A stretch of DNA of 64,000 nt from positions 21,899,168-21,963,167 of the forward strand of contig OZ316891.1 in assembly GCA_973895155.1 (NCBI GenBank), written 5' to 3'. Position 1 is the stretch's first letter. Each line of letters opens with the position of its first letter. Source of the stretch: Marsupella aquatica. Lineage: Eukaryota > Plantae > Marchantiophyta. Below are positions 963 to 60,899 of the stretch, in pieces. A model generated the notes under the pieces. That model ran no database searches and had not been told where the DNA came from. It was given only the letters and a program-made list of their open reading frames with translations. A program made the translations under genes and the position numbers.

Positions 963-1029
963 ACTAACTCTATAAACCCGGTTAAGACAAATCCAAGTGT
1001 GGATAAGTTGGTGGAATTGGATAATGTTG

Positions 1030-4000
1030 TGTCGCGTCCCTAACCCAGGCCTTAAATCCAGTTTAGTTCCATGGCGCGACTTTGACCACCAGTAAGGGTG
1101 AGGGTTCGGGCAAGGAGGTGTGTAGCGGCCTCGATTAGCCCCTAGTCGGGCTAATGTAATATACTTATGGGTATAACCCTTACGCAATTCGTACTAGTCA
1201 TAGGTATATTTGTTTTCCACCGCTGGAATTTTCCCACAGTTAGTGACTCGGACTAACTCCCGGCTTGGGGCTTTCAAGCCATCGACGCAACAGAACCTTG
1301 TGACATGCAATGGGTGGCAATCCCTACCATTAGTCTGCACCCGGTACGTCCCTTGAAATGGCGCCTTTGCCCAGACAAAGCATACACACAACACCAGTTA
1401 CTCGCGGAAACATTATAGGGAAAAGACTACATTTACTCAGCAAAGCATCAGTTTACATGGTTGACTCGACTTCTAAGGGGGTCAACAGGCCCAACGGTAG
1501 TCAATGCCCAGTCTCTACGAGGCCCCGCCTTGCACTTGCCCGACAAGCTCGACTCTGGCTCTCACTCCTTGGTGCGCTCTGACCCTGCTCAGGCCGGAAC
1601 TCCCCGTGTCTCGCCTTTTCTTCTACTAAGATAACTAAGCCTTCTCCCCCTCCCATAGCGGAAGGGGAAGCCTAAATACTACGGTTGCGGAAGGAAACCG
1701 GAGGATACTACCTTCTGGGATAATACCTACTGACTAACTACCTATTGACTAACTACCTTCTGACTAGTTGACTGTTGTCGACAAGGGTGCTGACCGACAT
1801 GGCAGCAGCAAAGCCTACTAACAACAAGCTAGTCCGTTGATGGACTCCATCCTACGTTGGCTGATCCTAAGTGATTTGGTCCTAACTCTTCATACTGCCG
1901 CTAATCGGCGCCTAATGACGGCTATTCTGTCGTTACGCCTGACCAGAAGATGCCGCTGACTCAACTGCCTCGCGTGGCGCCTGCTCCCTCTTACGTGTGT
2001 GCTGTGGTCGGACCAGGGTTTGTCCCACTGTCGAGGCGAGACCTCGAGCCGTCTTGATCAGAGGTGGGCCCAAGTTTTCCCCTTTGGAGGACAAGTAGGG
2101 TAACGCGATCCTGCAAGGCCTTGTTGTCCCGTACCGCCGCCTCTGCCTCGTTTGCGGCTTCATCGGCTTTTGTCTGGAGCCAAGCTATCTCCAGGTTGAG
2201 TTGGGTGATGGAGTTGCGATGGGCCTGGTCCTGCGCCCGCAATTTATCCCGTTCGGCGGAGAGACTAGCCACCTGCTGAGCCGCCTGCATGAATTGGTTG
2301 TTGAGGTCGATTAGGCTGGTAACCCGAGCCGAGGATTCTGAGCGCAACTGAAGCACAGTATCATTCAGCTTCTTGAGATCTTCTTGTGCCCCGCTCAACT
2401 CCTGGGTTAGTCCATCTCGCTGTTCGATGGTGCAAACTAACTCCTCACGGCGGGTAGTGGCCTCCTCCTCGAGGTGTTCTACTAGCATTTGGAGGCGCCC
2501 GATCTCATTCCCTTTGGCCATGAGTTCTTCTTCCAAGCGGCTTACGATCCGGGGTTGGTGCTCTAACATGAAGAAGGCTGGTTGAAAGTACGTCGAGACT
2601 TGTTGTCCGATGTACATCGCCAGCTCCCCAGACATAGTCTGGCTATACTTCTGGACCAGGTCGTAGGCCATGGTCCCCGGGGCTACGTGGTAGTCCTCCA
2701 TCCTCTCGGGTACTGGTGGTTCCTTAGCCGGGGCAACGATCTCCTTCGTAGTCTGCGCTGGGGAGGGGAAGGTTTCTTTCGGTGGTGGAGGGATTGGGGG
2801 TGGTTGCACTGCGGGTAGCGGAGGCTCGACGGAAGGGGGCGGCGGAATCACAACAGGAGGAGGTGGCGGAGTATTAGTCGGGGCCTCCGATGTTTAGGGT
2901 TTGCCCAAGGGATGGTAGTCCGTGCACTCGGGGTTGCCTCCTCTGGGGCGGGGGTGACATTAGTCGGGGCTGAGGTGGCCATATTCTTTCCTTTGGCCTC
3001 CCGCCGTGCCTTGTACCAGGCGAGGATGATGGCGATATGACTTCCCAAGTAAGTCTTCCCCCCAATAGCCATACCACTTTGAGCCCGCTTCAGCTCCCCC
3101 GAGAATCTACGATAAAAGAACTGGGCCCAGTTCCGCCATTTGTACTGTTCCACCTGCACGATCGTGCAGAGGGAGATCTCGGATTGTGGCTCAATCATGT
3201 GTAGGGTAGTCCGTATGAAGTTAAGCCGCTCCATGCAGATTAAGTTGGTGCACGACCCCTACTTGTATCCGTTGTCCGTCTTACCCTCGGGTTTGAAGTG
3301 CCGCGGTGTATACTCTTTATCCTGAATTTGGAGTTTGACTGGCACCGGCCCAGTTGGCAGGCATAAGATCTGTGCTAGCCGATGCTCCGTGAGTGTTAAG
3401 GTCTACCCTGAAACCTTGGTGGTCGATGCGTCAGAGTCGAAATTGGACATGAACTCGCAAATCTGCTTTGGCCCGGCGGCGCACAGTCTCCATAGCAAGT
3501 GAGCAAACTGCTCCAACTGATGCTCCTTGAGATAGTCCGCGTGTTTGAGTTTCTTGATCGAGATCCAGACTACTTTGGGGACGCAGATCACCTGTAATAA
3601 GTTGGACTTTGGGTTATCCGGGGGCCGCCGGGTCTGGTTGGCCGGGGGGTTTGTCGGGGCAGGTGTAGGCGCGGTGTTGGTTTGCGTTGTCGATTCGGGG
3701 GCCGGCGTCGTCCTTGCCCGCTTATGAGAACGCTGCTCGAGTTGCGGACTAACTTGCTCGGAACCCAAAAAACACACGGCGTTGATTACTGGATGGACTT
3801 GAGGCCGGTTCGGAGGTACGCCGGTGGTCATCGGCTGAGGTGCTGGGGGTGGTGCCGGGGTAGCCATATCCCAGTTGAAGGCATTGGAGCTTTCCCCGAG
3901 GAATGTAAGATTACGTGCAGCTTCCCGTTGTCTACTGATGTCTTCTTGGCGCTTTTCGGCTGCGATCTGCTGGTCTAGGTACCCGGAATCTTGTCGAACT

Positions 4001-4847
4001 CCGCTTGAGTAAGCCGCTGGTTGCCCTTCAGCCTACAGAACTTTGCGGGGACTTCAAGAATTGCCTCTGCTACCGATCTGAGCCCTTCCTCACTGAGATA
4101 TAGCTCGGTGATGTAGTCTCACAGCTCGTTGTAATTGTAGTCCCTGGTGATGGCCGTCTTCTCGCAATTAACCAGTGCTACCTTGGCCACCAGCTTTGCG
4201 TATCTTCGTTCGTAAGCGGCTTTCTCGGGGCAGGAGTACCAATAAGTCTTGGAGAACTTAGCACCTACCTCGCCAAACAAGGTCCAAAATCCCAAGGCTG
4301 TAAGGGTCATACTAACCTTTGTAGTCCGGTTCATCGAGTCCGCGTTCCCACCCGGCTGGTCCTCTTGCTTGTGGAGGCCTTACTTGTCCTGACTAAATCT
4401 CGCCACATCCCGCACTCATCCCTCGATAATCTCCTTGTAAAGGTCAGCTTGATTCGAGCAAAAAGGCAAGTGAATGGCAGCGTCTGCAAATTCCAAAAGG
4501 TAGAAATGAGCAAATGACCCGCAGCACCGTTGGCTCCTCTCTTATGGAGGTGCCAGGGTGAGCCCAGGCGTGAGAAGGCCAGGCCATTTTGGTCGTTGAT
4601 AATGAGCTAAAGTTGGCGCCTCGGTCCAAGCGTGATTCTCCAAACGGATTTTTACTCCGCCGCCGCCACCGTACCTCGGTCGCGAGTAATACTCCTCCTC
4701 CTAAATTTGTAATCATTTGGTCCACTTAACCTACTCCTATTCTATTCATAATAGCAACGGACGGCTATACGTGCTATTCTACTCTACGACTACGGTCCTA
4801 ATGACCGTATAAGACCTAATCTACGTCCTAGGTTTTGTTAAGTGACA
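1030..4847. mobile_element. Unit X copy 1: ~3.8-kb TG...CA-bounded insertion (solo-LTR-like) containing one long ORF
   Basis: Starts TGTCGCG, ends GTGACA. Flanks tgttg (1025-1029) and cgtta (4848-4852) look like a mutated 5-bp TSD. The Gypsy gag-PR spacer resumes after it. Homologous to 19539-22034 and 56499-59996. Confidence 0.8.
1991..4334 (-). pseudogene. Unit X ORF (~780 aa when joined): Pro-rich linkers, plant-retroelement accessory-type domain, C-terminal coiled coil
   Basis: ORFs 4119..4334, 3403..3867, 2848..3234 and 1991..2851 are collinear pieces of one reading frame when compared with copies 2 and 3. Contains the pattern EF..NF...T.V.G...LT...L.QI..LP.G...NW. Confidence 0.7.
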
Positions 4848-18550: not shown

Positions 18551-19538
18551 GGTTGCATCTACACCCACACTGCAACCTACTGTAAGGAAGAGCCAGAGGG
18601 AGAAGCCTACAACATGGGAATCTACCAGCCAGAGATCTGTGCCCTCTTATGTTGGACAGCAGTTAGGATGTTGGACCTGTGGTGGGGATCATGCACAGAG
18701 ATATTGCCCAGATCATAGAGGATCAGGGGGAGCATGAGCGCCTGATCAACAACACTGTGATCACTGTGGAGCTCCTGGACACACAAAGGATAGGTGTTTC
18801 TCACTCCACCCTGAGTTACAGAGAGGAGGATCACGTACACATGATCAGGGAAGAGGAGGAGGAGGTAAAGGTGGTGGACGTGGTCGTGGCATGCCACATG
18901 CAGGGAGACAGGGAGGTGACGCTGTCCCTGCTGTAACCATAGATCCAAAGGATGCTAAGATTGCTCAATTGGAGCATCAACTAGCTGCCATGGCTAGTTC
19001 CCAGGTGAGACCTAATTCTGGTGATGGGGCATCTACATCCTATGGACCTTCCACATCCCATGGTCCTTCCACATCTTATGGAGCTGATGGAGACCTTGCC
19101 ACCATGGGATTCATGTGTGGCACTACACATATTGATGCATCAGCAACGTTGACATGTGGGGCAGCCAAAGCTCTTGAGCCCTGAGGAGCAGTAGTGGAGT
19201 TAGATCCACAGAAGGGGGATGCACGTCGGTAGACAAAGCTTCCTTAGTCTTTTACATTGTCAGAGACAGTTCAGACTGCCTCTATGAACCCGGTTCGGAC
19301 AAACCCTGATGTGGGTAAGTTGGCAAAATCAGGTAGTGATGCAGTAGGGATGACAGGTACCCTGTTGGGGGCGGCTATTGCCATGGTACGCACCCCATTG
19401 TTTTCAGCGACAGACATGCTGAACTTGGGAGTTGGTCTTGCAAAAGTGGTCAGATTGGCAGCTACACTCTGTGAGGACACTCCAGTGGTTGTTTCCCATG
19501 CAGAAGCAGCTTGCAGTGTTGAAGCAGTGAAGACCATG
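18551..19538 (+). mobile_element. Gypsy copy B fragment (gag CCHC to gag-PR spacer), same family as copy A
   Basis: Closely similar to 284-1020 plus 4870-5030 (ggttgcatctacacccacactgcaacc..., CDHCGAPGHTK, TLLGAA, FSAT). Confidence 0.88.
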
Positions 19539-22034
19539 TGTCATGCCCCTAATCCGGGCCTTAAATCCAGTTTAGTTCTATGGGGCGACCTCGACCACCA
19601 GTAAGGGTGAGGGTTCAGGCAAGGAGGTGTGTAGTGTCCACGATTAGTCCTAAGTCGGGCTAAATTGATATACTTATCGGTATAATATTTACGCAACTCG
19701 TACTGGTCATAGGTATATTTGTTTTCCACCGCTGGAATATTCCCACAGTTAGTGACTCGGACTAACTCCCGGCTTGGGGCTTTCAAGCCATCGATGTGAT
19801 AGAACCTTGTGACATGCAATGGGTGGCAATCCCTACCATTAGTCCGCACCCGGTACGTCCCTTGAAATGGCGCCTTTGCCCAGACAAAGCATGCCCACAA
19901 CACCAATTACTCGCGGAGACATTTGAGGGAGAAGACTACATTTACTCAGCGAAGAATCAAGATACATAGTTGACTCAACTTCTAAGGGGATCAGCAGGCC
20001 CAACGGCAGTTGATGCCCAGTCTCTACGAGGCCCCACCTCGCACTTGCCCAGCAAGCTTGACTCTAGCTCTCACTCCTTAGTGCACTCTGACCTTGCTCA
20101 GGCCGGGACTCCCCGTGCCTCGCCTTTCCTTGCGCTGAGATAACTAAGCCTTCTCCCTCTCCCCACAGAGGGAGGGGAAGCCTAAATACTATGGTTGCAG
20201 AAAGGAACCGAAAGATACTACCTTCCAGGGTAATGCCTACTGACTAACTACCTTCAGGCTAGCCGGCCACACTCCTCGACCGGCTGACCGTTGACAGGCA
20301 AGGGTGCTATTTGGGACAGCAGCACCTAAATCTTCTGACCAAAATCTAGTCCACTGATGGACTCTATCCTACGTTGGCTAATCCTAACTGATCCTGTCCT
20401 AATTCTTCCTACTATACCGCTACTCAGCGCCTAATGACAGCTATTTTGTCGTTAAGCCTAATCAAAAAGATGCCGGTGACTCAACTGCCTCGCACGGCGC
20501 CTGCTCCCTCCCTTCGCTAACCACCCCTTACATGCGTGCTGTGGTCGGACCAGGGTTTGTCCCCCTGTCAAGGCAAGACCTCGAGCCGCCTTGATCAGAG
20601 GTGGGCCCAAGTCTGGCCCGCTGGAGGACTAGCAGAGCAACGTGGTCCTGCAAGGCCTTGTTATCCCGGACTGCCTCCTCTGCCTTGTTTGTCGCCTCAT
20701 CGGCCTCTGCTTGGAGCCGCGCTACGTCTAGATTGAGCTGGTTAATGGAGTCACGATGGGTCTGGTCCTGCACCAACAATTTATCCCGTTCGGCGGATAG
20801 ACTAGCCACCTGCTGAGCTACCTGCAGGAATTGGTTGTTGAGGTTGGTTAGGCTAGTAACCCAAGCCGAGGATTCTGAGCGCAACTAAAGCACGGTGTCG
20901 TCTAGTTTCTTGAGGTCCACTTGCGCCCCGCTCAACTCCTGGGTTAGTCCGTCCCGCTGTTCGACGGTGCGGACTAACTCCTCACGGCGGGTAGCGGCCT
21001 CCTCCTTGAGGTGTTCTACCAACATTTGGAGGCGCCCGATCTCGTTCCCCTTTGCCATGAGCTCTTCCTCCAAGCGGCTTACGATCCGTGGTTGGTGTTC
21101 TAACATGAAGAAGGCTGGTTGAAAGTACGCCAAAACTTGTTGTCCGATATACGTCACTAGCTCCCCGGACAGAGTCTGACTAAACTTTTGGACTAGGTCG
21201 TAGGCCATGGTTCCCGGGGCTACCTGGTAGTCCTCCATCCTCTCGGGTACCGGCGGTTCCTCGGGCGGGGCATCGAGCTCCTCCGTAGTCTGCAATGGGG
21301 AGGGGAATTGAGGTTTCTTCAGGTGGTGGAGGGATTGGAGGTGGTTGTACCGGGGGTAGCGGAGGCTCGACGAGAGGGGGCGGCGGAATTTCAATCTGGG
21401 GAGGTGACGGAGTATTAGTCGGGGCCTCTGGCTCGGGGTTTGCTTGAGGCGAGGTAGTCTGCTCGCTCAGGGTAGCCTCCTCCGTAGCGGGGGTGACCTT
21501 AGTCGGGGCTGAGGTAGCCATATTCTTTCCCCTGGCCTCCCGCCGTGCCTTGTACCAAGCGAGGATGATGGCGATATGACTTCCCAGGTAAGTCTTCCCC
21601 CCGATAGCCATACCTCCCTGAGCTCGCTTAAGCTCCCCCGAGAACCTACGGTAAAAGAATTGGGCCCAGTTCCGCCGCTTGAATTGCTCCACCTGTACAA
21701 TCGTGCAAAGTGAAATCTTGGATTGTGGCTCAATCATGTGTAGGGTAGTCCGTATGAAGTTAAGCCGCTCCATACAGATTAAGTTGGTGCACAACCCCTG
21801 CTTGTATCCGTTGTCTGTCTTACCCTCGGGTTTGAAGTGCCGAGGTATATACTCCTTATCCCAAATTTGGAGTTCAACCGACACTGGCCCGGTTGGCAGG
21901 CAGAAGATCTGTGCTAGTCGATGCTTCGTGAGTGATAAGGTCTATCTTGAAACCTTGGTGGTTGATGCGTCAATGTCAAAATTGGAGATGAACTCACAAA
22001 TCTCCTTCGGCCTGGCTGCGCACGGTCTCCATAG
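19539..22034. mobile_element. Unit X copy 2 (ORF on minus strand), truncated at 22034
   Basis: Starts TGTCATGCCCCTAA, homologous to 1030 onward. ORFs 20528..21884 match the copy 1 ORF. Similarity stops abruptly at ctccatag (22034). Confidence 0.88.
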
Positions 22035-22881
22035 AACACGATTTCGGACCGAACGAGAACTATTTCCTCTAAACGAGAAGTGTATTTTTATTTTCCGCCG
22101 AATTTCGGCAGCTTTTTTCATCAAAAACGCGTTTTTGGGGAAATAATGTAATTCGTATCGGAGTTCGGATTGAAACAACAAATTTAATAATGATCAAAAC
22201 CAATGAAATTCATGCTAACAAATATTTATATTATCAAGGAACAATTAGATCCGAAAAAATTTCTCCTCGACCTCATATTCACGCTCTCCGAAGATATATG
22301 AAAGGTCTTATCTATAAATCCATATCCATGTTTCGAGCCAAGTGCGATAACTGTATCGGACTCCGGATTTGAGCCACGAAAACTCCGACCCAATCTCAGG
22401 TTTCTCAGTTTTTGGATATTTACCAAAAATATTTTACATCACAGTCGATAAGAATTACTGCACGGTTCGTCAAATTTACCTTGCAGTTACCTCCGCAATT
22501 GACCAGTTACCTCCGCAAGTGACCATAGTCAACATGCCATTCTTTCAACAGCAATGCGCAGTCCGATAAAATTATCGCGAAAACTATGGGCGACAAAAAT
22601 ACTAGTTGACAATACTAAGATCCTTCGGTTCATCGGTTAAATTTCAAAATTCCTATCCATATGAAGAAAACTCTTCGCAATACCAACATCAGATAAATTT
22701 ATCGCTTCAATTTCAAAATTGCAACTTCCATATGAAGGAACCACTTTTGCAATACCAACATCAGATAAATTTATCGCTTCAATTTCAAAACTATATAATT
22801 TTTCCACGATGCACGTGTGAGAATGAAATTGGAAATCCAAGAAATATACCCTTTTCTGCTATTTTGTCGTTTAGGGTGACA

Positions 22882-22931
22882 GCCAATCAAAAGTGGACAC
22901 GTGGGCCAACCCCTCAACAGACACTATAAAA
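22882..22931 (+). promoter_or_regulatory. Candidate core promoter of the transposase (CCAAT, CACGTG, TATAAAA)
   Basis: Three canonical boxes within 50 bp, about 150 bp upstream of the ATG at 23076. Confidence 0.35.
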
Positions 22932-23075
22932 GGGCCACCGCCGATAAGTTTTTGGTGTCATTATCGAGAGTAGAGTTTTGGGAGTTGTGTTCTTGGAGCA
23001 ACATTCTGTCCGTTGAGCCTTTCGTTTTCCCTGATTGTGGGAGGAATGCAAAGCCCCATAGTGTCTCGGATAGCC

Positions 23076-26000
23076 ATGTCTCAATCAGACACAGATTCAC
23101 CTTCCAGTTCAGTTGAATCCTCTCCTAATCTTGTCGCTCGCTGTTTGCCAAGTCGCATACTTAAAGCTCTACCTCTCTCACAGCAAATAGTGCCCGAAAT
23201 CTCTGACTCAGATTCTGATGCAAGTTCTGGTCCTGAGCCTAGTGCTTACTATGTGTCGCCTAGTAAACCTGAGAAGCGTCGTCTCTTGAGCGTTCCATCA
23301 CCAAGAAATGAGAAACTTTCAATCCCAGGTTTAGGTCCGAGACGTCGCTTCAGGCCATCCATCTCGGGTTATGGAGAGGGTATCCGGCGACCGATATGCG
23401 TATCGCAGTCGGCATTCAAGTTGCCACATTCAACACAAGTTCAACGACGGATCTTTCAGTCTCCGGGTGAGGATCGGGACACAGAAATACAAAGACCGAT
23501 ACGGCGATCGGTCTTTGCATTGCCTGGACTGGATGTGCGAGCAAGCGAGGGAATCGGACTGCGAAGTCCAGACTCGGCCCTTTCTCGAATGGTCCATGGG
23601 AATCATGGTGAACAAGTGCTCAATTTTCCAGCAGCTCGCGGAGTCGTTGGGACTGCACGTGCGAATCCAGAATCTCCAAGTTCTCAAGGGCGAACTGTCA
23701 TTGGTTCCAGGCTCCAAGTATCGAGGAGAGGTCTTAGTGGCGTTCGGGTTATGTATAGAGAGCCACGGAGTCCAATTGTGTTTTCAGATGAGTCGAGTGC
23801 ATCGGAGAACGAAGATGAGGAAGGAGATAGAGAATCCGATATAATAGCACAAGTTGTGTCTGAATGTTTGGAAGGAGCTGTCGAAGAGAATAGCTATAGT
23901 CGTCTATTCAGTGCCCCTCTAAATGCGTCAAGGAGATCTATAGAGGATGGTAGCTCAGCAGAGAGTGATGCATCTATTCGCGAGGCACCTGAAGGACCCG
24001 AAAATGCCAATGTTATGAACGGATTTCAGGTTGTAGAGAAGTCAAATGAGCCTAGTAAAAAAGATAGGGACCGAATTACTAGGAAAGACAATGTGATAAA
24101 TGACAAATTGAATAGAAACAAAATGAGAGAAATTCATAAGTATTCGTGTTGTGATAATTATTGTCTGCGGAATTTGGGTCTGCTAGTCATGATGAAACAA
24201 TGCACTTATTACTATGGGCTATCCTACCCAGAGAAGAACGTCCTTCTAAGAGGATGTGTGAAGGGTGGGCATGCTGGTGCAAGTGGTTACTCAGTTAGTG
24301 GTAGATCCTTTTGTCGAAGTGGTTTTAAGAAATTATTTTCACTGGAAAATAATCATCTCCAAAAAATCTCGCAGAACATGTTTTCTCGGATACAGATCGA
24401 TACAGTTTGTCGAGAAAAATCACCCGCACATCTTGGTCTCGTCCAATGGCTGGATGATTTTTTTTCCACAAATGTCGAGAGTCTCCCCAACAAGGATATC
24501 TTTCATTTACGTGACAATTGGACAAAAACAGAGGTTTTTGATGCCTTCCAGTCCGAAACTCTAATGCGCCAAGAATAAGGCATGACATATTCATGGTTTG
24601 TTCGCATTTGGAACAAGGAGTTTCCTCGCGTGCGCATCCCCAAAAGGAGCCGTTTCTCCACCTGCGCCCCGTGTACTGAATTCAAAGCACTCCGTGACAA
24701 GGAAACACTCGAAGCATAAAAGAGTAAATTTCTAAACCTGTGTGTTACTCCCGATAATTTTATCGGGTTGAGTATTCATGTGCTTCTTCTTTGGCCATGT
24801 GAGTGAATATATCGTTTGAACAGTTTGAATACTGAACCTAATAAATTTATCGCTGTCACAGTTTTTCATTACGGTCTTGTGTTTGAATACTGAACCCGAT
24901 AAATTTATCGTTGTCAGGGTTTATCATTACGGTCTCGGGTTCAACATTGCGGTTATCATGTTTTGTCCTAAAATTTTTTATTGTTGTAGGAAAATTCTCA
25001 ACATTGCTAAACGAGCATCGGAAGGCACAAGCAGTCGAGAGGGAGAAGTTAGCAAAGCACCGGAGCAAATGTTACAAGAGTCCAGAGAAATATTTGGGCA
25101 TCTGTATTGATGGAATGGATCAAAAGAAGACAGAGTTACCTCATTTCATTCGGTGTCCGAAGAATATGGATGAAAAGTATTTCATCCCCGTACACGTAGT
25201 GGGTTGTTTGATCTTCAACAAACAATTAAGTTCAAATGTTTTTTTGAACTATCCAAATATTCACAATGATAGCAACCTGACCATCCACGTTATCCAGCAT
25301 ATTCTAAATACCTGGGAAGGTCTGCTCCCTCCAGTGCTTTACCTCCAGCTTGATAACACAGCTCGGGAAAACAAGAATAAATATCTTATGGCATATTTGA
25401 ATATGTTGGTGGAGATAGGTGTTTCCCAGAAAATAAAGGTTGGTTTCCTATTGGTGGGGCACACCCATGATCAAATTGATCAAATGTTTAGCAAGTTTTC
25501 TTCAAAATTGAACAAGCGGAAAGCTTTCCGGTTGGACACTCTTTCAGCAATCATAGAGGAATCCTACAATCCTACGGCAAAGATATTTTTCGTCGACGAG
25601 GTTGCCGATTTCAAGAAATTTGTGTCAGACAAGGATCAAGCAAATGACAAGGATATGGATGGTCAGGTTCTACGTACTCTCCACGGCATAAGTGCTCAAA
25701 AACAATTTCGGATTACTAGAGTACTCGAAGATGGAAGTGCTCGGTCCGTATTCCATGCCAAACATCTTTCAATGACAATCGATTGGGGGGAGACGGTGGA
25801 TTTTGTTCGGTACATTCCATCATCTGGAATGTGGGTCGCACCACAAATGGCATTGAAGTCGGCCACGGGAGCGACAGGAGACAATGAAGAGCAAGAGAAT
25901 GATGCTGAGGAACAAGATGAGCGGGCGGCTCAAAGTTATTTGTCAACTCTTCAAAAATATCAAAGAGCAATTGAAGATGGATTCAATTACTTTGACGACG

Positions 26001-26599
26001 CAGATCGACTATGGTGGGGTCGTTTTTTTGACAAACAAAAAGAAGTGATTCAGCACCACCTAAAACCTGCACAATGGAGTTTTGATTGGAGTTGGCCCAA
26101 GGTAAACGTACAGAGAGAACTTCCGAGTAATCCTACGGAAGCAGCAATGGAATCTAGCTTGGTTGATAAAGTAGCGGGTGTGAGGACAGTCATGTATTCT
26201 GGAAGTCGAAGAAAAGTCACGGAAATTGGAGACTTCAAGGATCTAGAGGTGAATACTAAATTTGCAATGATATGTGTAGCAGCCCATCAGGATCCCAAGG
26301 GAAGACCATTCTGGATGGCAAAAGTGACTGAGATTATCACAAGAATTAACGACATCCCGGAGCGGATTAAAATCACTTGGTATGCAATGGATTCGGAGGA
26401 AGAGTCTGCAATTGAAGGCAGATATTATCCGGAGAAAGAGGCTTCGTCTAGCAAAGTACTGGAGGATGAATTGTCCCTATCAGAAACTCCCGTTTATGCG
26501 TATAACTTTGCGTTATTGGCAAATAGTACTCTCCCTATACAAACAAGATGAATCATTCAAAATGCAATGGAGACTGTAGTCGTTGATAGTCGAAGCTAG
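23076..26599 (+). pseudogene. DDD-type transposase (Sola1/DUF7869-like), 2 exons (23076-24723, 24990-26599), three in-frame stops
   Basis: CCDNYC and FSTCAPC Cys motifs; catalytic-type IDGMDQ, LQLDNTARENKN, FLLVGHTHDQIDQMFS. A GT-AG intron restores the frame. Stops at 24576, 24717 and 26549 are consistent with C-to-T changes. Confidence 0.8.
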
Positions 26600-26927
26600 T
26601 TTCAGGTTTAAGTTATAATGGTTATCGTTCCCATGAATATGTACAGTGGTTATCGTTCTGGGACTATGTACTCCGAAGCTATAATGATATCTTTTTTTTT
26701 AAATAATTGCAATGACGAACCAGTTAGAGAATACAATGCTGTCCGATAAGATTATCGACAACTCCATTCCCCCAGCAGGAACACCGCGACAGTCCGATAT
26801 ATGCAAAGTCCGATAAATTTATCGCATTAATAAATGTGACAAAGGTTCTTCCTCATGGAATACAGAAGTCGATAAATTTATCGACAACTTCATTGGTGAT
26901 TGACATTATCCTAACGAGCACACGCAA

Positions 26928-29900
26928 CTAATCTAATAACATGTCGTTGAGATCATCCTCATTTGGTGTTCTGGGAGGCTCTTCCTCAGTTTCTTCTTGT
27001 TCCTCTTCGGTCTCCTTCACGACCTCAACTACGTAAGTCGATGTCCCGAGTACACCCAATTGGCCTGCAATTGGTGGTTGAATCTCATGACCTTCAACGC
27101 CGTGCCCTTCAATCTGGGATTCTTCATATAAATTCCAGTTTGACTCCAGAATCATGATCCGGGATTTTACAAAACCAATCTGCGCAGAACTCTTATCAAC
27201 AGCACAACCCTGGCAAGAATTGAGGAGCGTAGCAGCTAATGTCAATCCGGTTCCACAACAAAGATCAATAACCCAATCCTCTTTCTTATAGAAATGGGAA
27301 ACAAACCAAGCCCCTAAACCAACAGGCTTCTGATATGGGTTCACAACAAATCCCAACGGATCAACGGACTTCTTGGTTACACATGGAACCTTGATGATAT
27401 TGACGCGAGACTCATCCGGTTGGAAATTGTACATGTTCATGTTCCGAATGCCTTCCTCGCTATAGAAACCTATCGACCAGTTCTCAAAACCCCACGCCAA
27501 TCGAGCTCCAGCGGGACGCTCATGAATGTTAGTCTTCTCCCAGATTCCAGCCTCGACCCCACAGTTGCATACACTCTCCAGTGCAGACATCACCATATGC
27601 GTTTGTTGTAGTGAATGGATCACAACAAACCTCCACTGCTTAGCGGTCGTCATCTTTGAGAAACTTGTCAACATGTCTAAAATGTCCTTTTCTGTGAAGG
27701 CCACTTCATCAAACTCCAAACCAGGAGCATTAAAACCATACGAAATATCCGCAACCGCAAGGGTGTAAGCCCTTGGCTGAACAAAAGAATCCAAAATTCG
27801 AACATCACCAACATGGAGATAGTAGGGAAAAGAATCCCCATCTGCATTTTTCCATGTTTGTTCAAACGCTTCTGCTGTGCCCTCGCCTAAGGACCTCAGC
27901 CGATTGTACTTTTCGATTGCAGCAAGCACAAAATTCTTAAACACATAAGGGATTTCAGCTGAGGGAACAATAACCTCCCCCGCAGAATTATAAGTGACAG
28001 CCAAAACCACTTTGCTTTTCCTTTTTGAATTAATCTTCAGTTGTAAGAATGTCAGACACATCTACAGTTAGAATAGCGTGAGATGAATGCTAAGGCCGAT
28101 AAAAATCTCGCGATGGAGCACGCTAGCCAATAAATGGAATCGCTTAGAAACCAACAAAGGAATGCTAAAGCCGATAAAAATCTTGCGATAGAGCATGCTG
28201 TGAGAGGAATGCTTACCGCGTCACTCAATTTCTCCGCCCATATGCCAAGGACCAAGACATCTGTTTCGTTGGGAAACATTTCTCTGCATGTTGCCCAATC
28301 TGGCTGACCAGATATCTGCAAAAATAGTTTCTTCACCTTGGCAAGCTTTTTCAACTTCTCACCTTCCTTGTGCATTTGATCCAAAGTGATCACCTTCCCG
28401 ATAACCCTATTCAAGAGACGCTTGACATGCTCCTTATTTGACAGTCCTTGGAGACCTTGAAATGAATTTAAGTTGAGGTCACCAGCAAGTTTATTCATTT
28501 TAATCTCCCTTACCGTCAAAGGTTTCACCTTTCCCTTTGCGTTCGTTGTTGCCACAATTTTTTTGGGTTGTCCTAAGACAATACCTTTCTCCCACATCTG
28601 GAAAATCTGCTCCTGAAGATCCCAAATTTCACCTGTTCGGAAAGCAATTTGGAAAGCCGGATCATGTTTGGTGATGGAGTCACGAACTCCTGGCGTGTAC
28701 TCCATCATGCATTCTTGACAACATGCTTCGTGGACATCTTTAGTCGAGCCCACACCCATTTCAAGGAAAATATTGTGACAAGCGCGAACTTGGTCAATTT
28801 TAGTCATGTTCTTTCGATACTCCTGGTCATAGTTATGCTGGAAGCCTAACTTTCGGACCTCGGATCTCGTAAGCCCAGCGTAAACCCAAGCTTCCAGCTC
28901 ACCATATATTTGCTTCCCGTATATTTTAAACAACTCGGACTTTGCCCGAGCACCATGATTCCCTCCAATAATTCTATACTTCCATACCCTTGACTTCAGG
29001 ATGTCCCAATCTGCGGTTGTGGGACAATCCTTTGGATCCACACACAGCACGAACGGGGCACTGAAGTTGGTGGGGTTTTTCATGAGAAGTATCTTGATAT
29101 TTTCCACATGCAATCTATCCACTGGTCTAATCAAAGTTGTCAAATCCCCCTCCTCATCAAATATGAGATTGTCGACATGCAGAAGCACAGTTGTCCTTTG
29201 CACCCTTCGTTGCATCAGAAGACTGAGCTCTGCCTTGATCGCGTCCGTCTCATACATCGAAAGAGCCGTCTCCTCCTCCTGATCAGCCTACAAAAGCGTT
29301 GCAAATTCAATTAAGGAAAGAAACTATGAGATTTTTATCGGAGTTCGCATTTGTTCAACATAACTCCACAATCCACAATTCAGGAAATAAACAGCGAGAT
29401 TTTTATCGGATTTCGTGTTTGTTAAACAGTACAACGACGTAGTACTTACCAATGGCGCCGTAGGAACCGCGACTGGAACTGATGGAATTGACGGAGCTCT
29501 ATCTACTTCTGCAGCCACCATCTCAGTCCAGCCAGTCCTCTTCCTCTTTGTGCTAAGTCCAGAACCAGATGGCCCGGATCCCTCGGATCCTTTACTTTCG
29601 CTTGGTTTAACGGATGGTCCTCGATGGTTGCCCCGGCCTCTCCCACTACCGCCAGTTTCCTGGCTCTTCTTCCCACCGTCAGAGGTTCCCGCGGCATCTC
29701 CCCTGCCGCTACCTCTCCCTTTCCCTTTTCCACTTCCCGAAACCCGACCAGAAGTTGTAGGTTCGTCCACGTCAATATGTGTAGAGGATTGCAATGGTTC
29801 TTTCCGCCCCGATATTTTATCGGCATTAGAACCACCACTTCCACTTGAACCTGGTTTCTTGAAAACAATTTTGCGGACAGGTTTGAACTCTTCACCCACA

Positions 29901-30418
29901 AGTCTCTTGTACTCTGCGTTTACCCTTGGAAGCATGATGGCATCACAATCTTGCACATACTGGCCGATCCAAGCCGAACCCATAACATTCATCTCTCTTG
30001 CTGCGTGAACATCGGCAACAAGGGGATCTTCTAGATAACTGTCCATCGATTTCTCATCAAAGGTATCGAGAGTAACAATGAGAGATGTGAAACCCTTGCG
30101 CCCACACATTGTCAAGAAACTAAGGCCCTCTGTCAACACTTTTCCCTCCCCGTGGCCAACCATGAACTCGACGACGGCAACAGCAATGACAGGGCCATAC
30201 GAAACATTAACCTTCGTCCATTTTTGCAACTGGACCCAAAGGATTGGGGTAACACAGTCTTCGAAACCCGTGGACTGTAATCTGGCATCACGGAAGTACC
30301 ATGACTTCTTGATACACTTGATCTCTTCACAAATGTCTTCACTTGTCCAAATTGCATTGGTGAGGCTTGTCATGAGACTTTCTGCCTCAGCAGATCCACT
30401 CTTTCCACTAGTAGCCAT
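26928..30418 (-). CDS. ~1050-aa ParB/Srx-like + beta-class amino (N6A/N4C) DNA methyltransferase-like protein; exons 30418-29450, 29287-28217, ~28034-26928
   Basis: Phase-0 GTAAG donors join three ORFs in frame; the last acceptor is weak or mutated. ParB-like RPVD..HV..I, YRIIGGNHGARA. MTase LHVGDV, LAVADISYG (motif IV), IWEK, NPYQKP, VIDLCCGTG, CAVD. Confidence 0.75.
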
Positions 30419-30638
30419 GGAAAAGTCTGCAAATAAACAAATTCCAATGCAAAGAGCGATAAAATTATCGCCGCCAATCTCACAGCACATGTGGACACGA
30501 CATCTCATCACACAAGGACAAAGAGACCGATAAAATTATCGCAAAAGTGAGCCTTCTTTAAATTGACGGCCGAGTGTATAGGTCGAAGAATCAGCTACGG
30601 AACCCTAAATCCAAAACCTTAACCCCTAAACCTAAACC

Positions 30639-31070
30639 CTAATCATAGTTGAACCTCGCCAGAGCGAAGCGTTCGATCCGCTTCTTGGGCCATTGGGGAA
30701 TATGAGTGACGCGATGATCATAAGCCCACAGCCAATGGAAATCAACTTCACCAGTCTCAGGATTCACTACTGCTACTGAATACCGGCGTGACGGAATGTC
30801 ACAACAAGCATTTGTGCAGCATGGACAGATCTCACCATTGGCAAGGACGTTCGTCCACAGGCAACTTACATAGATCAAGTTAAAGAGCCCACAGACCGGC
30901 TGGGGGGGGAGTTGACGAATCTTGTATGAATATAGTTTCCCACCAGTGTCAATAAAAAACTCGGTGGCAAGAGGATTGTCCAGCTCGTCAATCACATCCT
31001 GAATCTCATCGAATGCTCTACGTCTATTGTCGGCATAGAATTTTGGCTCATAAGCAGGATTGCCCTTCAC
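30639..31070 (-). CDS. Hypothetical Cys-containing cargo ORF (possibly an exon or fragment)
   Basis: 143-aa ORF with protein-like composition (CPCCTNACC), same strand as neighbouring cargo; no ATG start. Confidence 0.35.
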   Translation of the reverse strand: MKGNPAYEPKFYADNRRRAFDEIQDVIDELDNPLATEFFIDTGGKLYSYKIRQLPPQPVCGLFNLIYVSCLWTNVLANGEICPCCTNACCDIPSRRYSVAVVNPETGEVDFHWLWAYDHRVTHIPQWPKKRIERFALARFNYD

Positions 31071-31644
31071 AACATGACACCAGTGGAGTATAAAATGTCT
31101 TACTGCACCGGTTTTCAGAAAGAGTAGGATAACTCTTCTAGAAAATCCAACATATCTATCCCACCGAATATAAATTTCTCCCCCTACCTAATCTACGTAG
31201 AAGTTTAATGCGTTATGGTAAAACGGTTTTACTACCAGCCTGCATATCTTTAAAATTAGTGACTCATCCAGCCTCCTTAGCTGGTCTAGCATGGCTCCAT
31301 TCCCCCATTCTGGAGGATCCGGGAAGGGTTCAAAAATGCGTCGCTCGAGCATGGCCTGATCACCGAATAGAAATCAGGAATAAATTTTGGAGAACATACT
31401 AATTACAATTCTACAAGTTTCATCCAACTTTACAGTACCTTGTATAACGGGCTGTGAAGCCAATGCACTTGTCAGCTAATCGTCCGAAGAGGCGCAAAAA
31501 AATACACTCTGGACCACACAACCCGAAGTCAGGGGAGGCAGAGTCAATTATATTCAAAGTGTTTCTTTACAAGCACCCAAAATCGACTAGAGGAATGAGG
31601 AGTGCGATAAATTTATAGGATGTTCGCTGCAATGCCTCATCCAC

Positions 31645-32193
31645 TCAAACTCGTCCATGCCATGCAAGAATTGTTCGCTTCCCGCTTTCTCCAAGATTCA
31701 CCCAAACTCTAAGAAACGCATCTAATCGGTCATACGAGAAGCACCCAAGCATATCTATGGGAGGGAGGAAATGAGTTTCCTCTCGGAAGACCCTAGCAAT
31801 ATGTAGGTTTGAGAGAAGGACGACATTAGGAATGCTTGCGAGCATTTTGTTTATGTCATTGATCTCACGGACTGCATATTTCAATAGCGCCCAAAATCGT
31901 GTACCAACAACAAGATGGTTCCATTTCTTCGAGGTGGCTCCAAGACAAATGATTGTTCTCATTCGAGTCAGTCGTTCTTCTGGTAGAAGTTTTAGGTCAA
32001 GGCCAAGGTGTTCATCTTGTGTGCAAGACAAGGCTAGGAGGGGCCAAATGTGAGATTCAACGAGTTCATCGGGAAGTCCATTCAACAAACTTCCGCATTC
32101 CACACCGGGAACTTTTCCTCGAATATATTTCCTACGCTCGTGGGCTAAAACGGATCCCATCTTTGCAACGATTAGATTCTCCGATGCAGCCAT
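31645..32193 (-). CDS. Small F-box-like protein (182 aa)
   Basis: LNGLPDELVESHIWPLL ... LGATSKKWNHLV..TRFW fits the F-box pattern LPDE...I...L / V(S/C)K.W..L....W, with an insertion. Confidence 0.55.
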   Translation of the reverse strand: MAASENLIVAKMGSVLAHERRKYIRGKVPGVECGSLLNGLPDELVESHIWPLLALSCTQDEHLGLDLKLLPEERLTRMRTIICLGATSKKWNHLVVGTRFWALLKYAVREINDINKMLASIPNVVLLSNLHIARVFREETHFLPPIDMLGCFSYDRLDAFLRVWVNLGESGKRTILAWHGRV

Positions 32194-33589
32194 GAAGCAG
32201 AGCTACCAAAACCACCAATAAAAATACCTTCAATCACCAGGTGTAACCAAACACAGTACCAACCCTGCACGACAGTTTAACGATTAGGACTCGTGACGTA
32301 TTATATTCGCTGCGCAAGGGTAGGACTTGTTTATTTAAATATGTCCTTCCAAGATGCGCCTCAATGAAAAGGTCGAAACACTCATCGTGAAAGGTTCACC
32401 CAAGGGTCTTCGTTCCAAATCTTACAACAGAAGTGAGCCTGTTTGTGGTACTTGTTATCAAGACGACGACAACAATAGTTACAAGAAAACTCCAAAGAAT
32501 GTAAACACGCCGCTAACATCAACCTCGAACGAATTGGAACTCCTGCATCATTCATTCCGCAGAATTCAATGCGGAGAGGATTCTGCCTATCTCCAGGATC
32601 AGTACCACCCATCCACAATGCAAAGATGGGATCCGTTGCAACGAGCTCAAAGACCTTCCTCGGTCAAAGAATCTGATGAGTGGATGAAGGGCCTTATCTC
32701 TAGCTAGCGGCCTTTGTTTGAAGCCCATTGTTTCCAACAGGAAATCATTGACAGAGACTGGATTTGATCTGGGGTTCATTTATCTCGCAACTGGTCTTTG
32801 TCCTTCCGTCACTAACATATCCATTCCTGAGTGGAACATGTGGCCGGTTGGATTTGCTTCCAAACCATTTTTTTAATATCTCAAAGCAGTATCTCTCAGA
32901 TGATGGGTTTTTGGCGGTTCTTCATAGTAGTCAATTTGACCACACCACTGCAATTTATACCGCTGCTCAATCACAAGGACATTTCAAGCCAGTTTGCTCT
33001 TAGATTGTTCTTCTCTTGACTCCTTTATTCAATGGAACCTCAGATATCACGGTAAGTCTTGAGCCTTCATAATTGTTTATAGCAAACTTGATTCGCTATT
33101 ATTGATAGCGAACTTAATTTGCTATCAATCTGCTTGTGGAAAAGTCTGCCTCACATATTGCTTAATGTACTGATGATTTGTATTCTTGGCATGAAACATG
33201 TTTTCAATGTTGTTTGGACTGGTGGACAGGGGGTGATACCAAAATATGATAAGTTTGTCCCCCTTTCAAGTTTAGAGGATCCCTCATTGTAGACTCTTAT
33301 TAGTCTCATGATTCCTGGGTGTGTGGGGGATCCAGATATGGGATTTGAGGGTTCCGCCCGCGTATCCATAATTTGGGTTAATGCAGACCGTGATTGAGCT
33401 GCTCACTTGCCCTTCAGATGTTGTTTTTGATTGGACTCTTGGGGTTGCAGCTTTCTTGTGGGAGAGTATTTCGGGAGATTTGCCACCGGTCTTGAAGATC
33501 AGGATGAATTTGGGGATTCCACTGAACTTACAGTCGCTGAAAAAGGTCCTGGACAGGAACTGCATAGCCTGGTTGTTTTATTGGTATTA

Positions 33590-33830
33590 AGAGAGGACTT
33601 AAAATTTCATGTGTAAGAACATAAGGGTACTTTAAAAATTAATTTTGAGACTTATGGGAAAACTAAGATTGGGTTTCAGAAACTAAATTTTGGAAAATTC
33701 TAACCATATTCTAAATTAGTAGCCAGGGTAAAAGAATTCAAATTTATATTGCTAGTTAAGTTTAGATACAAGACCTAAACACAGTGATCTGTGGGGCTCC
33801 ATATAATGAGAATCCAGAGAGAAATTAAAC
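33590..33830. mobile_element. Degenerate copy of the CTCGGGGG MITE family
   Basis: Collinear similarity to 13530-13755 (gacttaaaattt...aattttgagacttat...ccatataatgagaatccagag); TIR and TSD eroded. Confidence 0.55.
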
Positions 33831-33849
33831 CAGAAAATGGGGTAAGAAC

Positions 33850-33872
33850 GGGGGGGGGGGGGGGGGGGGGGG
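33850..33872 (+). repeat. Poly-G homopolymer (23 nt)
   Basis: Directly visible run of G. Confidence 0.9.
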
Positions 33873-35194
33873 AAGAAAAACACTGCAAATTAATTAATCG
33901 ACGTAAATAATTTAGCTAATTCCTCTGTATCCACATAAAATAATTGAGGGTAGCTTGAACAAATCACGAGTGAAAGGCTGTTTAAGGCAATCCATACTCT
34001 CGTCCATATTAAGCACCTTTCTTCTGTGAAGTACTTACACCAGTTTGAGTCAGCTAAAAAAGGACCATCACTAGATTGACCCAACAAAGGATGAGAAAAT
34101 AAGGAATTCTATGTATGTGTTATGACAAACTTCTTCAATATATGTACATGTTGGAATTAACCTTTTCAGATGCACTTGTTAGTGGTTGTGTAATTATATA
34201 TAAGGTTCATATCCATGTTGATTCATGTTCATGTTCATTCATATGCTGTCACTATTATTCTCACCAGAGGTACAATACTGGGTCCACAAATGCGTTTTGG
34301 AGTTAAGTGAACCTGATTGTCCTGAAGGCATTGAATAGCTGATAACTCATTGAGACGGGAGGGATTCAGCTGAAACTGCTTTTTACTACTAAGGTTACCC
34401 CCAAACTGAGCGTCATTACACACCTGACCCAAACTATATTATTTTTTACTTTACTATACTGCCCCCCAAATAAATACAAGTCCAAGTAACCCATATTCCT
34501 GCACACGGGCGCTTTTTTGGTCCTCCATCGACCCAGGTGGGTTAGCCTAACCCATCCCTGCTCCTCTCTGGTCGCCCCTACTTGGGCATCGCCAGTGAAC
34601 ACCCACCCAATGTCTCCCAAGCACACGGAATCCTGCTGGCTCATCTTGCTTTCAAAAAATGTCAAGAAAATGACACACTGGGGACACTCAAATTGACGGG
34701 AGATATTTATTGGTAAAGATGGATAGAATTCAATTGTGGTGGGTGGGATCCTGAGGCAAGTGTTTGCTTTCAAGACATTTTCTGTACAATTCTGTGATGG
34801 AGGTTGTCAGTGCTGGCAGCCAATTTCTTCTGGACGCAATTTCTTCTGCGAATTTCTTCCGTGCTCAATTTCGTTTGATAAATACCGCTTGCACTCATAT
34901 GTCACGGCAGGGTTAGGGTTTTGGGGATGTGGAGTGAATGAGTCAACTTTGGTACATTGGTAAGGTGGATTAAGCTGCCTTGAGAATTTAGCTGGGCATT
35001 TCGCGTGCCGCTGGTTCTAAACTGTTGCAGAACGGGAAGCAGGGTTTTTTCGGTGTGCAAATTCTTTGGACGGGAAGCAGAGTTTTTTCGGTATACAAAG
35101 TCTTTGGATTGCAGACTCCAATTATCATGGTTGGTTTGTCATTTCATTGCTGAACAATGTGTGATACTGCTCAGAGAAGACATGGACTAGAAGA

Positions 35195-37752
35195 ATGGAA
35201 GTAGTAGTCACAGGCAGGGTCATGGGTGGTCAATCTGAAATGTCATTGCCGACCGGGGTAAGGTATTTGGTGTGTACTCAGTTTCTGTCGCGCTTCTCGG
35301 TGAAAGGAACCCAGGCGGTTCTTGTGCTGTTTCTATTTGAGCATGTGCGGCTTTCGGAGAACCTCTCCGCGGAGCTCGTGCATATCTTCCTTACTGTCAC
35401 GAATTTCGGTCCAGTTCTTGGTGCTGTTCTCGGCGATGGCTATTTGGTAAGAATTCCTTCCAGATTACGCAGCTACTGGCTAATACCGTTTATCGAGCAG
35501 TCGCATTCGAAAGAGATCCGCCCTTGCCTTGGGTATCTGTAAAGATGGCTGCCTCGCACCTTTGCATTTGTGTTTTTGCTTAAGTGCAATACTTTCATAC
35601 GTTCTCCTAAGATCTTGTACTCGTCGTGTACCCTTCTTGATTACAGGGAAAGTACCGTGCATTGTTCTGTTGTGTATTAGTTCAGCTGGCTGGCATGGTG
35701 ATACTGGTCTTAGGGGCTATGCCTAGTGCAGAGACAGGATGGAGAATCCCAATGGCCTCTGTTTCAGTGCTTGGGCTTGTGGTCATTGCCTTGGGTGTCG
35801 GTGGCAGTAAACCTTTAATACCAGCTTTTGGAGGAGATCAGATCGAGGTACTGGTATCCGAAGAGACAGAGAGAGACAGGTTGAGGCCGCTCTTCTTTTC
35901 CCTTTGGTACGTAGGTTTGAATTCTGGATCTTTTTTAGCTACAGTAGCTATTCCTCCGCTTCGAACATTGGGTTCTTACGGCTTGATTTTCTCCGTGCAA
36001 ACTGCCGTTTTAGTGGTATGTTTTCTGGTGTATTGGCTTGGAAGAAATGATTATGCTCATCTCCAAGTCAGAGAAAATGTGGTTGTGAAGGTTGGCACAA
36101 TCATTATTGATGCGTTGAAATCTTGGACAAATAAAGAAGCAAGAAAACGGAGAGCAGGAGAGCTTGACTTATCAGAAGCTGGAGAGCAAGAGCATATCTT
36201 ACCAGAAAATGACATTGTGGACAATGGTCGACTGGCCATCGCTACAGGTGACTCCAAGTATCATTGGCTAGACGATAGCAAGCTGAAACATGATGCTACT
36301 GCAGTAGATGAAGTCAAGCTCCTGCTTCGAGTGTTGATCCTGTTTACCCCTATGCCTGTGTTCTGGGCTCTTTTTGAGCAGCAGTACACCAAGTGGGTGT
36401 TCCAAGCCCGTTCGATGAATCTCGAAGTGGCCTGGCTTGGTGGTCTGGTTCTGCAACCAGAACAAATCCAGGTCCAAAATCTTCCTTAGCTGGAGTTCAA
36501 AATCTATGTATTCAGTATTGGAGTCTGAATGGTTGTAATCTATATGTTCAACGGTAGGATCTCTAGGGCAGTTGTCGCACTTACTGCCTGGTTGTACTAT
36601 TCATTCATCAAGATGTGAGCACTGGATAGGGAGCGCAAGGACTAGGGTTCAGAATACATAGGAAAGGATTGAAATTTTTGTGGTGCTCTGCAGGCGCTCA
36701 ATCCACTGCTTGTGTTGATAATTATACCGACTCTTGATAAGGTCATCTATCCCTTGTTTACGAAATTAAAGATCCCATTGCCACCGTTGTCGAAGATGAT
36801 TCTCGGGATGGCCTCTGCAGTGGTGGCCTTTATTGCCTCAGGTGTCTTACAGCTTCTCATTGACAGCAGTCTGAAAAGTAACTCAACTGCTCAAACAGCA
36901 AGGCTATCTGTATTTTGGCAGGGGCCACAGTATCTTTTCATCACTCTTGCAGAGGTACTGATCAACGTTACAGGCCTAGAATTTGCTTACTCTCAGGCAC
37001 CATCATCTATGAAGTCGTTGCTGCAGGGTTCATGGCAAGTTTGTCAAGCCATTGGTAAGACTATTGGGGCTTTAATTCTCTTCCCTCGCAATGCAACAGT
37101 CTAGGGGTTGAGTATTAGCAGGTCCTTACCACTAGAACCCTGGAATCATTCTTAATTCCCTTTTCCCATTATTCACGAAGCAGTTGTGTCCCCTTCTTTA
37201 TCTGATGCAACTGACGCAAAAGAATGATTTATATTTCCAAAAATGCCAAACTTGAAGAGCAGCCTTTCTGTGTTGTCTGTTTGGTATTTTAAAAACACAA
37301 CAGCATTTTGGTGAGAATTTTTGTGCTCAGAGCTTTCAGGAACTTTGATTTTCTTGGGATCTCAAATGTACGAAGAAACTAAGGTAGCCGCCCTCGAGTT
37401 GGTCGTGCGTTTTACCGTATCTGATGTAGAATGTTGGTCTATTTGTCAAACTCTGTCCATATCTTGTGTAGATTGAAGGCATTTTTCTCTTGAGTGTCAG
37501 CAATATGCATGTTATTCATTGTTACTCACGTGGATTCTGTTTGCAGGCGACTTCATGACTGCTTTAATCATTGCCCTTATCGGGGAGAGACTCTCAAAAG
37601 CAAATGAGTTTTTCCTGTTCGCTGGAGGGTGTGCAGCTGCAATGTTGTGGCTAATCTGGATTGCGCGAGGCTTTGATGACAGTAAGCTTTTTGTACCTGC
37701 TAATCCTCATCCAATGGTTGCAGAAAGCACCTACTTTGGCTTGGTTGAATGA
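35195..37752 (+). CDS. POT/PTR-family (SLC15/PepT-like) peptide transporter, 547 aa; exons 35195-35446, 35647-36471, 36694-37054, 37547-37752
   Basis: Three GT-AG introns give a stop-free 1644-nt CDS. Motifs GAVLGDGYLGKY, IALGVGGSKP..AFGGDQ, FFSLWY..LNSGS, FWALFEQQ, PEQIQALNP, GLEFAYSQAP.SMKS. Confidence 0.92.
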
Positions 37753-60744: not shown

Positions 60745-60899
60745 AGAAAATATATCTGCATACTGATCGTATTCATTGAGAAATCGTAAAGAGGAGATGG
60801 ATATTGATACTGATGCTCTAATTGTTAAACTTGAAGTATAATTATACAGACTATATTATATCAAATTGATAAGGTCACATTGCTCAATCTAGACCTTGG

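Follow-up and report, generated by a model that had tools for sequence, protein, structure and literature searches.

A multi-copy DNA transposon of the liverwort Marsupella aquatica carries a repeated, dispersed sequence that is best read as a family-specific protein-binding site, along with a gene whose predicted product could both read that site and methylate DNA. The element lies at 22035 to 32621 of a 64-kb stretch of contig OZ316891.1 (the window, to which all positions refer) and contains a DUF7869 transposase gene and a convergent cargo gene, the latter a putative fusion of a ParB-type reader with an amino-methyltransferase. The protein-binding interpretation is drawn from sequence, since fixed spacing, two-fold symmetry and family-specific letters persist in non-coding compartments while the surrounding DNA turns over. 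The comparative evidence for a family-specific binding site is strong, and an encoded reader-writer system is plausible. Going by predicted structures, the cargo protein rather than the transposase probably reads the sites.

The 14-bp word CGATAANNTTATCG is present in the window in 8 exact copies and in 21 copies at up to two mismatches (mean 1.36 and maximum 4 in shuffled controls at the same tolerance), 17 of which fall in the element, between 22345 and 31618. The motif is thus a real feature. An initial annotation of this DNA had seen no full copy of it elsewhere in the window, and indeed all 8 exact copies and all 4 one-mismatch copies lie within 22345-31618; the placement it gave (non-coding DNA, introns, gaps and upstream regions) is correct. 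Its count of about 15 copies had the positions right but missed the copy at 22345, a half-site at 22155-22171 and the exon 1 copies at 23392 and 23497, and the 14-bp quasi-palindrome that it described, although real, belongs to a larger, bipartite site with an outer AATRC box. This second conserved box stands on one side of the aligned copies, giving the general form AATRC-N6-CGA-N8-TCG and the window version AATRC-N6-CGATAAAWTTATCG, in which the N8 core is TAAAWTTA. All 12 matches of the half-site AAT[AGC]C-N6-CGATA in the 64 kb fall within the element. When half-sites are counted without regard to family, the element has 19 (15 of them non-coding) against 1.6 in shuffled sequence, and the remaining 53 kb of the window has 5 against 4.5 expected; confinement to the element was assessed within the window only. 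The sites are distributed as follows:

22155..22776, left-end sites and sites upstream of the transposase (half-site 22155-22171; cores 22345, 22564, 22691, 22763)
23381..23521, two degenerate double-armed 36-bp sites in the low-complexity start of transposase exon 1 (cores 23392, 23497)
24752..24910, three sites in the transposase intron (cores 24752, 24839, 24897)
26734..26883, three sites in the gap between the convergent genes (cores 26744, 26811, 26870)
28086..28185, two sites in cargo intron 2 (cores 28097, 28172; a 75-bp duplication)
29327..29419, two sites in cargo intron 1 (cores 29327, 29395; a 68-bp duplication)
30446..30541, two sites 5' of the cargo start (cores 30457, 30528)
31594..31618, one site between two small open reading frames (ORFs; core 31605)

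Judging by an acceptor-like sequence right before the ATG, the sites at 30446..30541 probably lie in an intron of the 5' untranslated region. The first 300 bases from the left terminus contain no full site. Local duplications of 58-75 bp, to which several copies had been attributed, were found in part: flanks are shared in 4 of the 10 close pairs tested (spacings of 72, 58, 75 and 68 bp, flank identity 0.53-0.66), but not in the pair 30457/30528 or the intergenic trio, where flanks compared in the same orientation give no sign of duplication (identity 0.18-0.32). Most copies do keep both CpGs, as had also been proposed (both intact at 11 of 17 sites, 28 of 34 CpGs overall), a count that is partly circular as CG defines the motif.

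Five sister loci (L001-L005), which by contig name belong to one assembly, were obtained from 197 candidate stretches in a metagenome scan. Cargo exons are present in all five, intron 2 has the same position throughout, and three loci extend to a convergent transposase. The window core was found in none of them. Their sites are CGA-TCCAAACA-TCG in L001 (21 copies in 5 kb), CGA-TACCCGTC-TCG in L002 and CGA-GACNNGTC-TCG in L003-L005, dispersed and of the same shape as those of the window, in both orientations and often with the outer box on both arms. Family-neutral half-sites number 18, 5, 25, 13 and 8 in L001-L005 respectively, against 0.4-0.6 in shuffled sequence, and 68 of these 69 lie outside the approximate exons. 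The geometry is common to all six elements: in 66 of 73 sites the AAT precedes the core by exactly 11 bases, and no other offset tested occurs more than 4 times in any element. The initial annotation had suggested testing whether sister families have different motifs that co-vary with the protein, and this was found in all five loci. Three core groups (window, L001 and L002-L005) are mutually exclusive, with no cross-matches at up to one mismatch, and they coincide with the groups into which both cargo exons cluster. Cores taken from different introns or gaps of a single element have an identity of 0.84, a value inflated by the choice of sites by their core; for cores in the same intron of different groups it is 0.30. 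Distant flanks of sites within one element have a background identity of 0.28, and intron 2 of the window element and that of L001 no longer align with the other elements.

These comparisons bear on two explanations that do without an element-encoded reader. In one, no protein reads the palindromes; they would be filler that amplifies itself, or RNA hairpins, multiplied through slippage and gene conversion. The four local duplications in the window would fit such a process, as would the tandem site arrays in introns of L002, L004 and L005 and the spacer letters partly common within one element (identity 0.45). We nevertheless consider it improbable, as the outer AAT box holds its exact spacing across families whose introns can no longer be aligned, the flanks in one compartment bear no relation to those in another, the L001 core lacks self-complementarity, sites occur in both orientations, and Rfam contains no family matching the sites. 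Alternatively, the sites could recruit a host transcription factor or chromatin protein: they are non-coding and near promoters, and the window core includes GATAA, which we take to be a GATA-factor-like word. However, the sister elements swap GATAA for unrelated cores while keeping the geometry, and the remainder of the window has half-sites only at chance level, which makes a host factor highly improbable. A protein reader encoded by the element accounts better for the data, and two candidates are available.

The first of them is the product of the cargo gene, which runs on the minus strand, convergent to the transposase, in three exons (1057 amino acids) predicted to be spliced in frame over two GT-AG introns:

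29450..30418, minus strand, cargo exon 1, a domain of about 190 amino acids of no known family and a low-complexity linker
28217..29287, minus strand, cargo exon 2, a ParB/Noc/KorB-like nucleotide-binding fold (GGNH motif) followed by a ParB-type helical DNA-binding domain
26928..28061, minus strand, cargo exon 3, a beta-class N6A/N4C methyltransferase (DIPY...DLCxGTG in the family, DISY in the window copy)

The exon 1 domain is present in L001 and L003 at 27-33% identity, with no match in Pfam and no usable one in Atlas. The structure model of exon 2 (pLDDT 87.6) has Noc and ParB as its top Foldseek matches (E 6e-6), with alignments that cover both domains, as does that to KorB, and structures of Noc, KorB, ParB and SopB bound to DNA rank among its closest matches. 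A VIA search returned PadC (Z 10.3, root-mean-square deviation (rmsd) 2.6, 95 aligned residues) and KorB (Z 8.7), and residues 151-315 match the KorB DNA-binding domain (VIA Z 5.7, rmsd 3.8, 108 aligned). In terms of Atlas features, fungal DUF3723 is the family closest to exon 2 (0.95, 173 shared features), a lead without an alignment. There is moderate support, from models, for a central helix-turn-helix DNA-binding domain of ParB type. The predicted recognition helix reads HDP with CGAT and HDH with CGAG in 5 sequences, which we treat as a lead only; L003 was left out of the ParB alignments for an in-frame stop.

The model of exon 3 matches CcrM (Foldseek E 1.5e-12) and also M.BceJIV, N4CMT, RsrI and PvuII, and the exon matches the phage families phrog_67 and phrog_498. 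It has 26 relatives at 49-68% identity, and PF01555 is detected in 22 of the 27 rows of the alignment. The catalytic motif, DIPY or DVPY in 21 of the 23 rows covering motif IV, precedes the S-adenosylmethionine-binding motif, of DLCxG[T/S]G type in 23 of the 27 rows, which is the beta-class arrangement. The first residue of motif IV is D in all 23 covering rows, in contrast to the S of the SPPY of N4-methylcytosine (4mC) writers. The DISY of the window is a private change of this copy, since reads of all four sequencing runs show A>G at 27743, a proline codon. A search for longer homologs of the methylase exon found none, and PDB sequence searches with this exon and with the ParB profile gave nothing significant. 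The cargo had initially been annotated as a ParB and methyltransferase protein; the predicted folds support a fusion of a ParB fold with an amino-methylase.

The second candidate is the DUF7869 transposase, of which the window holds a broken copy in two exons with three premature stops:

23076..24723, plus strand, transposase exon 1, low-complexity N-terminus and Cys-rich region (premature stops 24576, 24717)
24990..26600, plus strand, transposase exon 2, DUF7869 core (Pfam PF25273, E 2.6e-48; premature stop 26549)

At least the first stop is private to the window copy, as other copies have C at 24576 according to the reads. Exon 2 has 97 homologs, and its D121, N127-K128-N129 and G156-H157-T158-x-D160 are invariant. 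Named relatives of the transposase belong to Ceratopteris, Adiantum and Riccia; those of full length have 33-38% identity. A PDB sequence search with the transposase gave nothing significant; the motifs DN..ENKN and GHT.D presumably resemble those of the Sola superfamily.

Binding of the sites by this transposase, for transpososome assembly or self-activation, seems rather unlikely to us. In its favour, the transposase gene is inherited together with the motif, and DNA-binding domains of transposases typically recognise bipartite sites of 26-36 bp. On its own, the AtMu1 transposase binds cognate copies and activates them (10.64898/2026.08.24.746577), but its peaks are at terminal repeats; in the present element full sites are missing from the terminal 300 bases and occur in every intron. 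That position 22035 is the true left terminus follows from the contigs of four sequencing runs placed on 19500-36500, eight of which (run X1) end there and continue into unrelated flanks (agreement 0.46). Two-fold symmetric sites would moreover suit a ParB-type dimer, and a distant relative of the cargo elsewhere in the window also has palindromes.

This relative is the ORF 61152-63272 (minus strand) in a second element at 59983-64000, a remote match to the cargo (E 4e-5 and 1e-4). The second element has 8 copies of a 21-bp palindrome, GGAYRGAGA-YCA-TCTCYRTCC, unlike the main site. Six of them lie in 78-bp tandem repeats (63345-63759), and the other two are at 60699 and 61504. An NIF-phosphatase-like ORF (59983-60855) lies next to ORF 61152-63272. 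For the window's second methylase-like ORF, single-sequence BLAST against the Chara-type relative P0041 was not significant, and the two are linked by profile comparison only. The cargo is favoured over the transposase as reader because of the site-free terminal 300 bases and because this remote relative has its own palindrome, and it is a likely reader because it is predicted to belong to a family in which short palindromes are bound by dimers, as is established for ParB, Noc and KorB (10.1101/2025.10.10.680097).

We therefore put forward a mechanism to which we give about even chances: a dimer of the cargo protein reads AATRC-N6-CGA-N8-TCG, N-methylates its own element and so shields it from host silencing. 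The dimer, suggested by the symmetry of the site and by the ParB family, would bind in introns, promoters and gaps of its own family; once bound it would add N-methyl marks to the element, as the conserved catalytic motifs imply, and the marks would keep the element from being silenced, the direction of this effect being taken by analogy with VANC and with DAM-carrying retrotransposons. Reader and core would change together, such that each family serves only its own copies. Sliding of the protein away from its site is possible but not required. N6-adenine is the more likely target, giving N6-methyladenine (6mA), because of the D in motif IV; 4mC on the invariant CG is less likely but conceivable, the methylase domain having switched specificity repeatedly (PMC8885841).

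The cargo could also read the sites to the opposite end, as a KorB-like repressor or licensing factor that damps promoters or marks copies as suitable for the transposase. The closest structural matches of exon 2 include KorB and Noc, sites cluster at the promoters and 5' introns of both genes, KorB, VirB and BisD regulate genes (10.1101/2025.10.10.680097), and the bdelloid N4CMT, which is beta-class and related by its fold, has transposable elements as its targets (PMC8885841). Against this, the density of sites within internal introns and in the gap between the two 3' ends fits the VANC pattern (PMC5735166) better than that of a promoter operator, and CpG depletion is only mild in all six elements. 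We judge repression or licensing unlikely, and prefer the shielding of the element by its own cargo protein.

Several observations nevertheless weigh against such a shielding system. Co-variation of core and protein is weak evidence: there are only three motif groups, transposase and cargo are co-inherited, and because the two travel together it fits either reader. On the protein side, the DNA-binding part alone is a modest structural match (Z at most 5.7 in the helical region), and Pfam HTH_ParB is found in the relatives below the cut-off (E 3e-4 to 8e-4). The canonical Box II arginine of ParB (GxxR) is absent in all 31 readable rows of 54, which have GNH followed by G, S, T or other residues; this arginine was required for nucleotide binding in the proteins tested (10.1101/2025.10.10.680097), so that the CTP (cytidine triphosphate) switch looks altered and CTP sliding by the cargo is doubtful. 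Methylation, for its part, may be secondary, because ORF 61152-63272 seems to be without a catalytic motif and yet keeps its palindromes. A host reader of the amino-methyl mark may also be lacking, as major multicellular lineages are described as having lost the 6mA pathway (10.64898/2026.05.21.726589). Finally, the window copy has decayed chiefly through C>T/G>A changes, and CpG retention is no greater in the six elements (observed/expected 0.81-0.86; cargo coding sequence 0.69) than in retro-like repeats (0.70-0.83), the CACTA-type element of the window being at 0.32. CpG retention was accordingly rejected as proof of anti-silencing, given the similar retention in retro-like repeats and the ascertainment of the motif CpGs.

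In its layout the element works like the VANDAL elements of Arabidopsis and their VANC proteins (PMC5735166), although it is not a member of that group. Both have an accessory gene beside the transposase, a motif piled up in intronic, intergenic and terminal non-coding DNA, local repeats, and sister families with different motifs (here three exclusive core groups in six elements). VANDALs differ in their Mutator-like transposase and 8-9-bp motifs, against DUF7869 and a bipartite palindrome of 25-36 bp here, and the accessory protein of the present element is a predicted ParB-fold reader with its own methylase. With ParB/parS, Noc/NBS, KorB and VirB (10.1101/2025.10.10.680097) the cargo shares an N-terminal ParB fold followed by a helical DNA-binding domain, and a short palindromic site. 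It differs from them in being eukaryotic and intron-containing, in having GNH[G/S] in place of GxxR, in its fused methylase and in the outer AATRC box of its site; no ParA family match was found among the ORFs of the element.

Fusions of a ParB fold with a PF01555 methylase in one protein are described from phages and prophages (the ParB-N6_N4 methyltransferases of 10.1101/2025.10.10.680097), in the parts available without dispersed cognate sites. ParB-terminase loci are described in PMC4738411, whose eukaryotic ParB-HTH methylase is a chlorophyte-type Dam of Group 2 rather than a permuted beta-class enzyme. DAM-carrying retrotransposons (10.64898/2026.05.21.726589) likewise combine a transposable element with a prokaryote-type amino-methylase and a proposed gain from 6mA, but they are retroelements with a DAM domain, whereas here a DNA transposase accompanies a PF01555 domain. 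The main text of that paper has no occurrence of ParB or N6_N4 and, as far as available, describes no targeting sites. The bdelloid N4CMT and Marchantia DN4MT1 (PMC8885841, 10.1101/2021.02.12.428880) are eukaryotic beta-class amino-methylases as well; they are host genes with SPPY that write 4mC, in contrast to a transposon-borne enzyme with DIPY and a ParB-type reader. A literature search for DUF7869 gave 0 matches and no description of the element or its site was found, so that the transposon family is apparently undescribed, though supplements, subscription papers or Repbase may already name it.

If the proposed system is real, no earlier example of a ParB/parS-like operator system from a eukaryotic nucleus appears in the literature found, and the task of VANC would have been solved a second time, independently and with phage-type parts. 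Searches for 6mA or 4mC in a multicellular plant, where the existence of 6mA is disputed (10.64898/2026.05.21.726589), would also be pointed to a definite enzyme, site and location. Natural reader-site pairs with three different cores would offer a specificity code open to swaps, and could yield compact tools for targeted methylation.

The occurrence of cargo relatives in several plant and animal genera makes the question wider than one genome. Exon 2 matched 161 representatives, of which 41 were scanned; 9 of these also have PF01555 at E ≤0.01, 8 of the 9 at or above the cut-off, among them proteins of Chara, Riccia, Ginkgo, Adiantum and Holothuria. Cargo relatives are found in these five genera and in Haliotis and Ptychodera. 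In Riccia sorocarpa the relative R1sor_010796 and a DUF7869 gene, R1sor_010795, have consecutive locus tags. No cargo relative was found in scans of viral contigs and of prokaryotic genome contigs. A still wider proposal, an undescribed and widespread class of eukaryotic transposons with a phage-type ParB clamp-methylase (parS-like loading, nucleotide-gated spreading, writing of 6mA or 4mC) in plants and possibly some animals, of which fungal DUF3723 cargo would be a methylase-less branch, is tentative and on balance doubtful. The animal relatives P0080, P0096 and P0177 come from abalones, a hemichordate and a sea cucumber. In abalones the protein is kept in four species and is possibly domesticated; its C-terminus is weakly Tudor-like.

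The transposon itself (22035..32621, multi-copy, with its left terminus at 22035 and its right end apparently truncated at 32621) has an internal contig depth of 510-520 in run X1 and 829-1291 in run X2, compared with 8-14 and 62, respectively, in the right flank, read depth being evidence of many copies and not a copy number. Summed contig depth is greater over the left 1.3 kb (22035-23400) than over most of the body, which may point to shorter non-autonomous derivatives. At 32621 two contigs run on into one common other sequence, and the right end of the window copy has therefore probably been cut short there. A 19-bp perfect inverted copy of internal sequence stands at this end (32619-32637 against 32149-32167), as if left by template-switch fill-in during the deletion. 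No inverted-repeat partner of the left terminus was found in the window, in which only that terminus lies; the best candidate has 5 mismatches in 20. Two further ORFs of the element also have multi-copy depth:

30639..31187, minus strand, small ORF with no function match
31645..32202, minus strand, small ORF with a weak F-box-like stretch (PF12937, E 0.23, below cut-off)

The element is inserted, at 22034/22035, into one copy of a retro-like repeat with a coiled-coil ORF, of which the window has three copies that are 85-88% alike (1028-4183, 19537-22034 and 56499-60004). The low-depth flank contains host gene fragments of a PTR2/POT transporter at 35165-37104. The CACTA-type element mentioned above lies at 50782-54514 (Transposase_21, DUF4218), and the ORF upstream of it has what we take to be a SET-like appearance.

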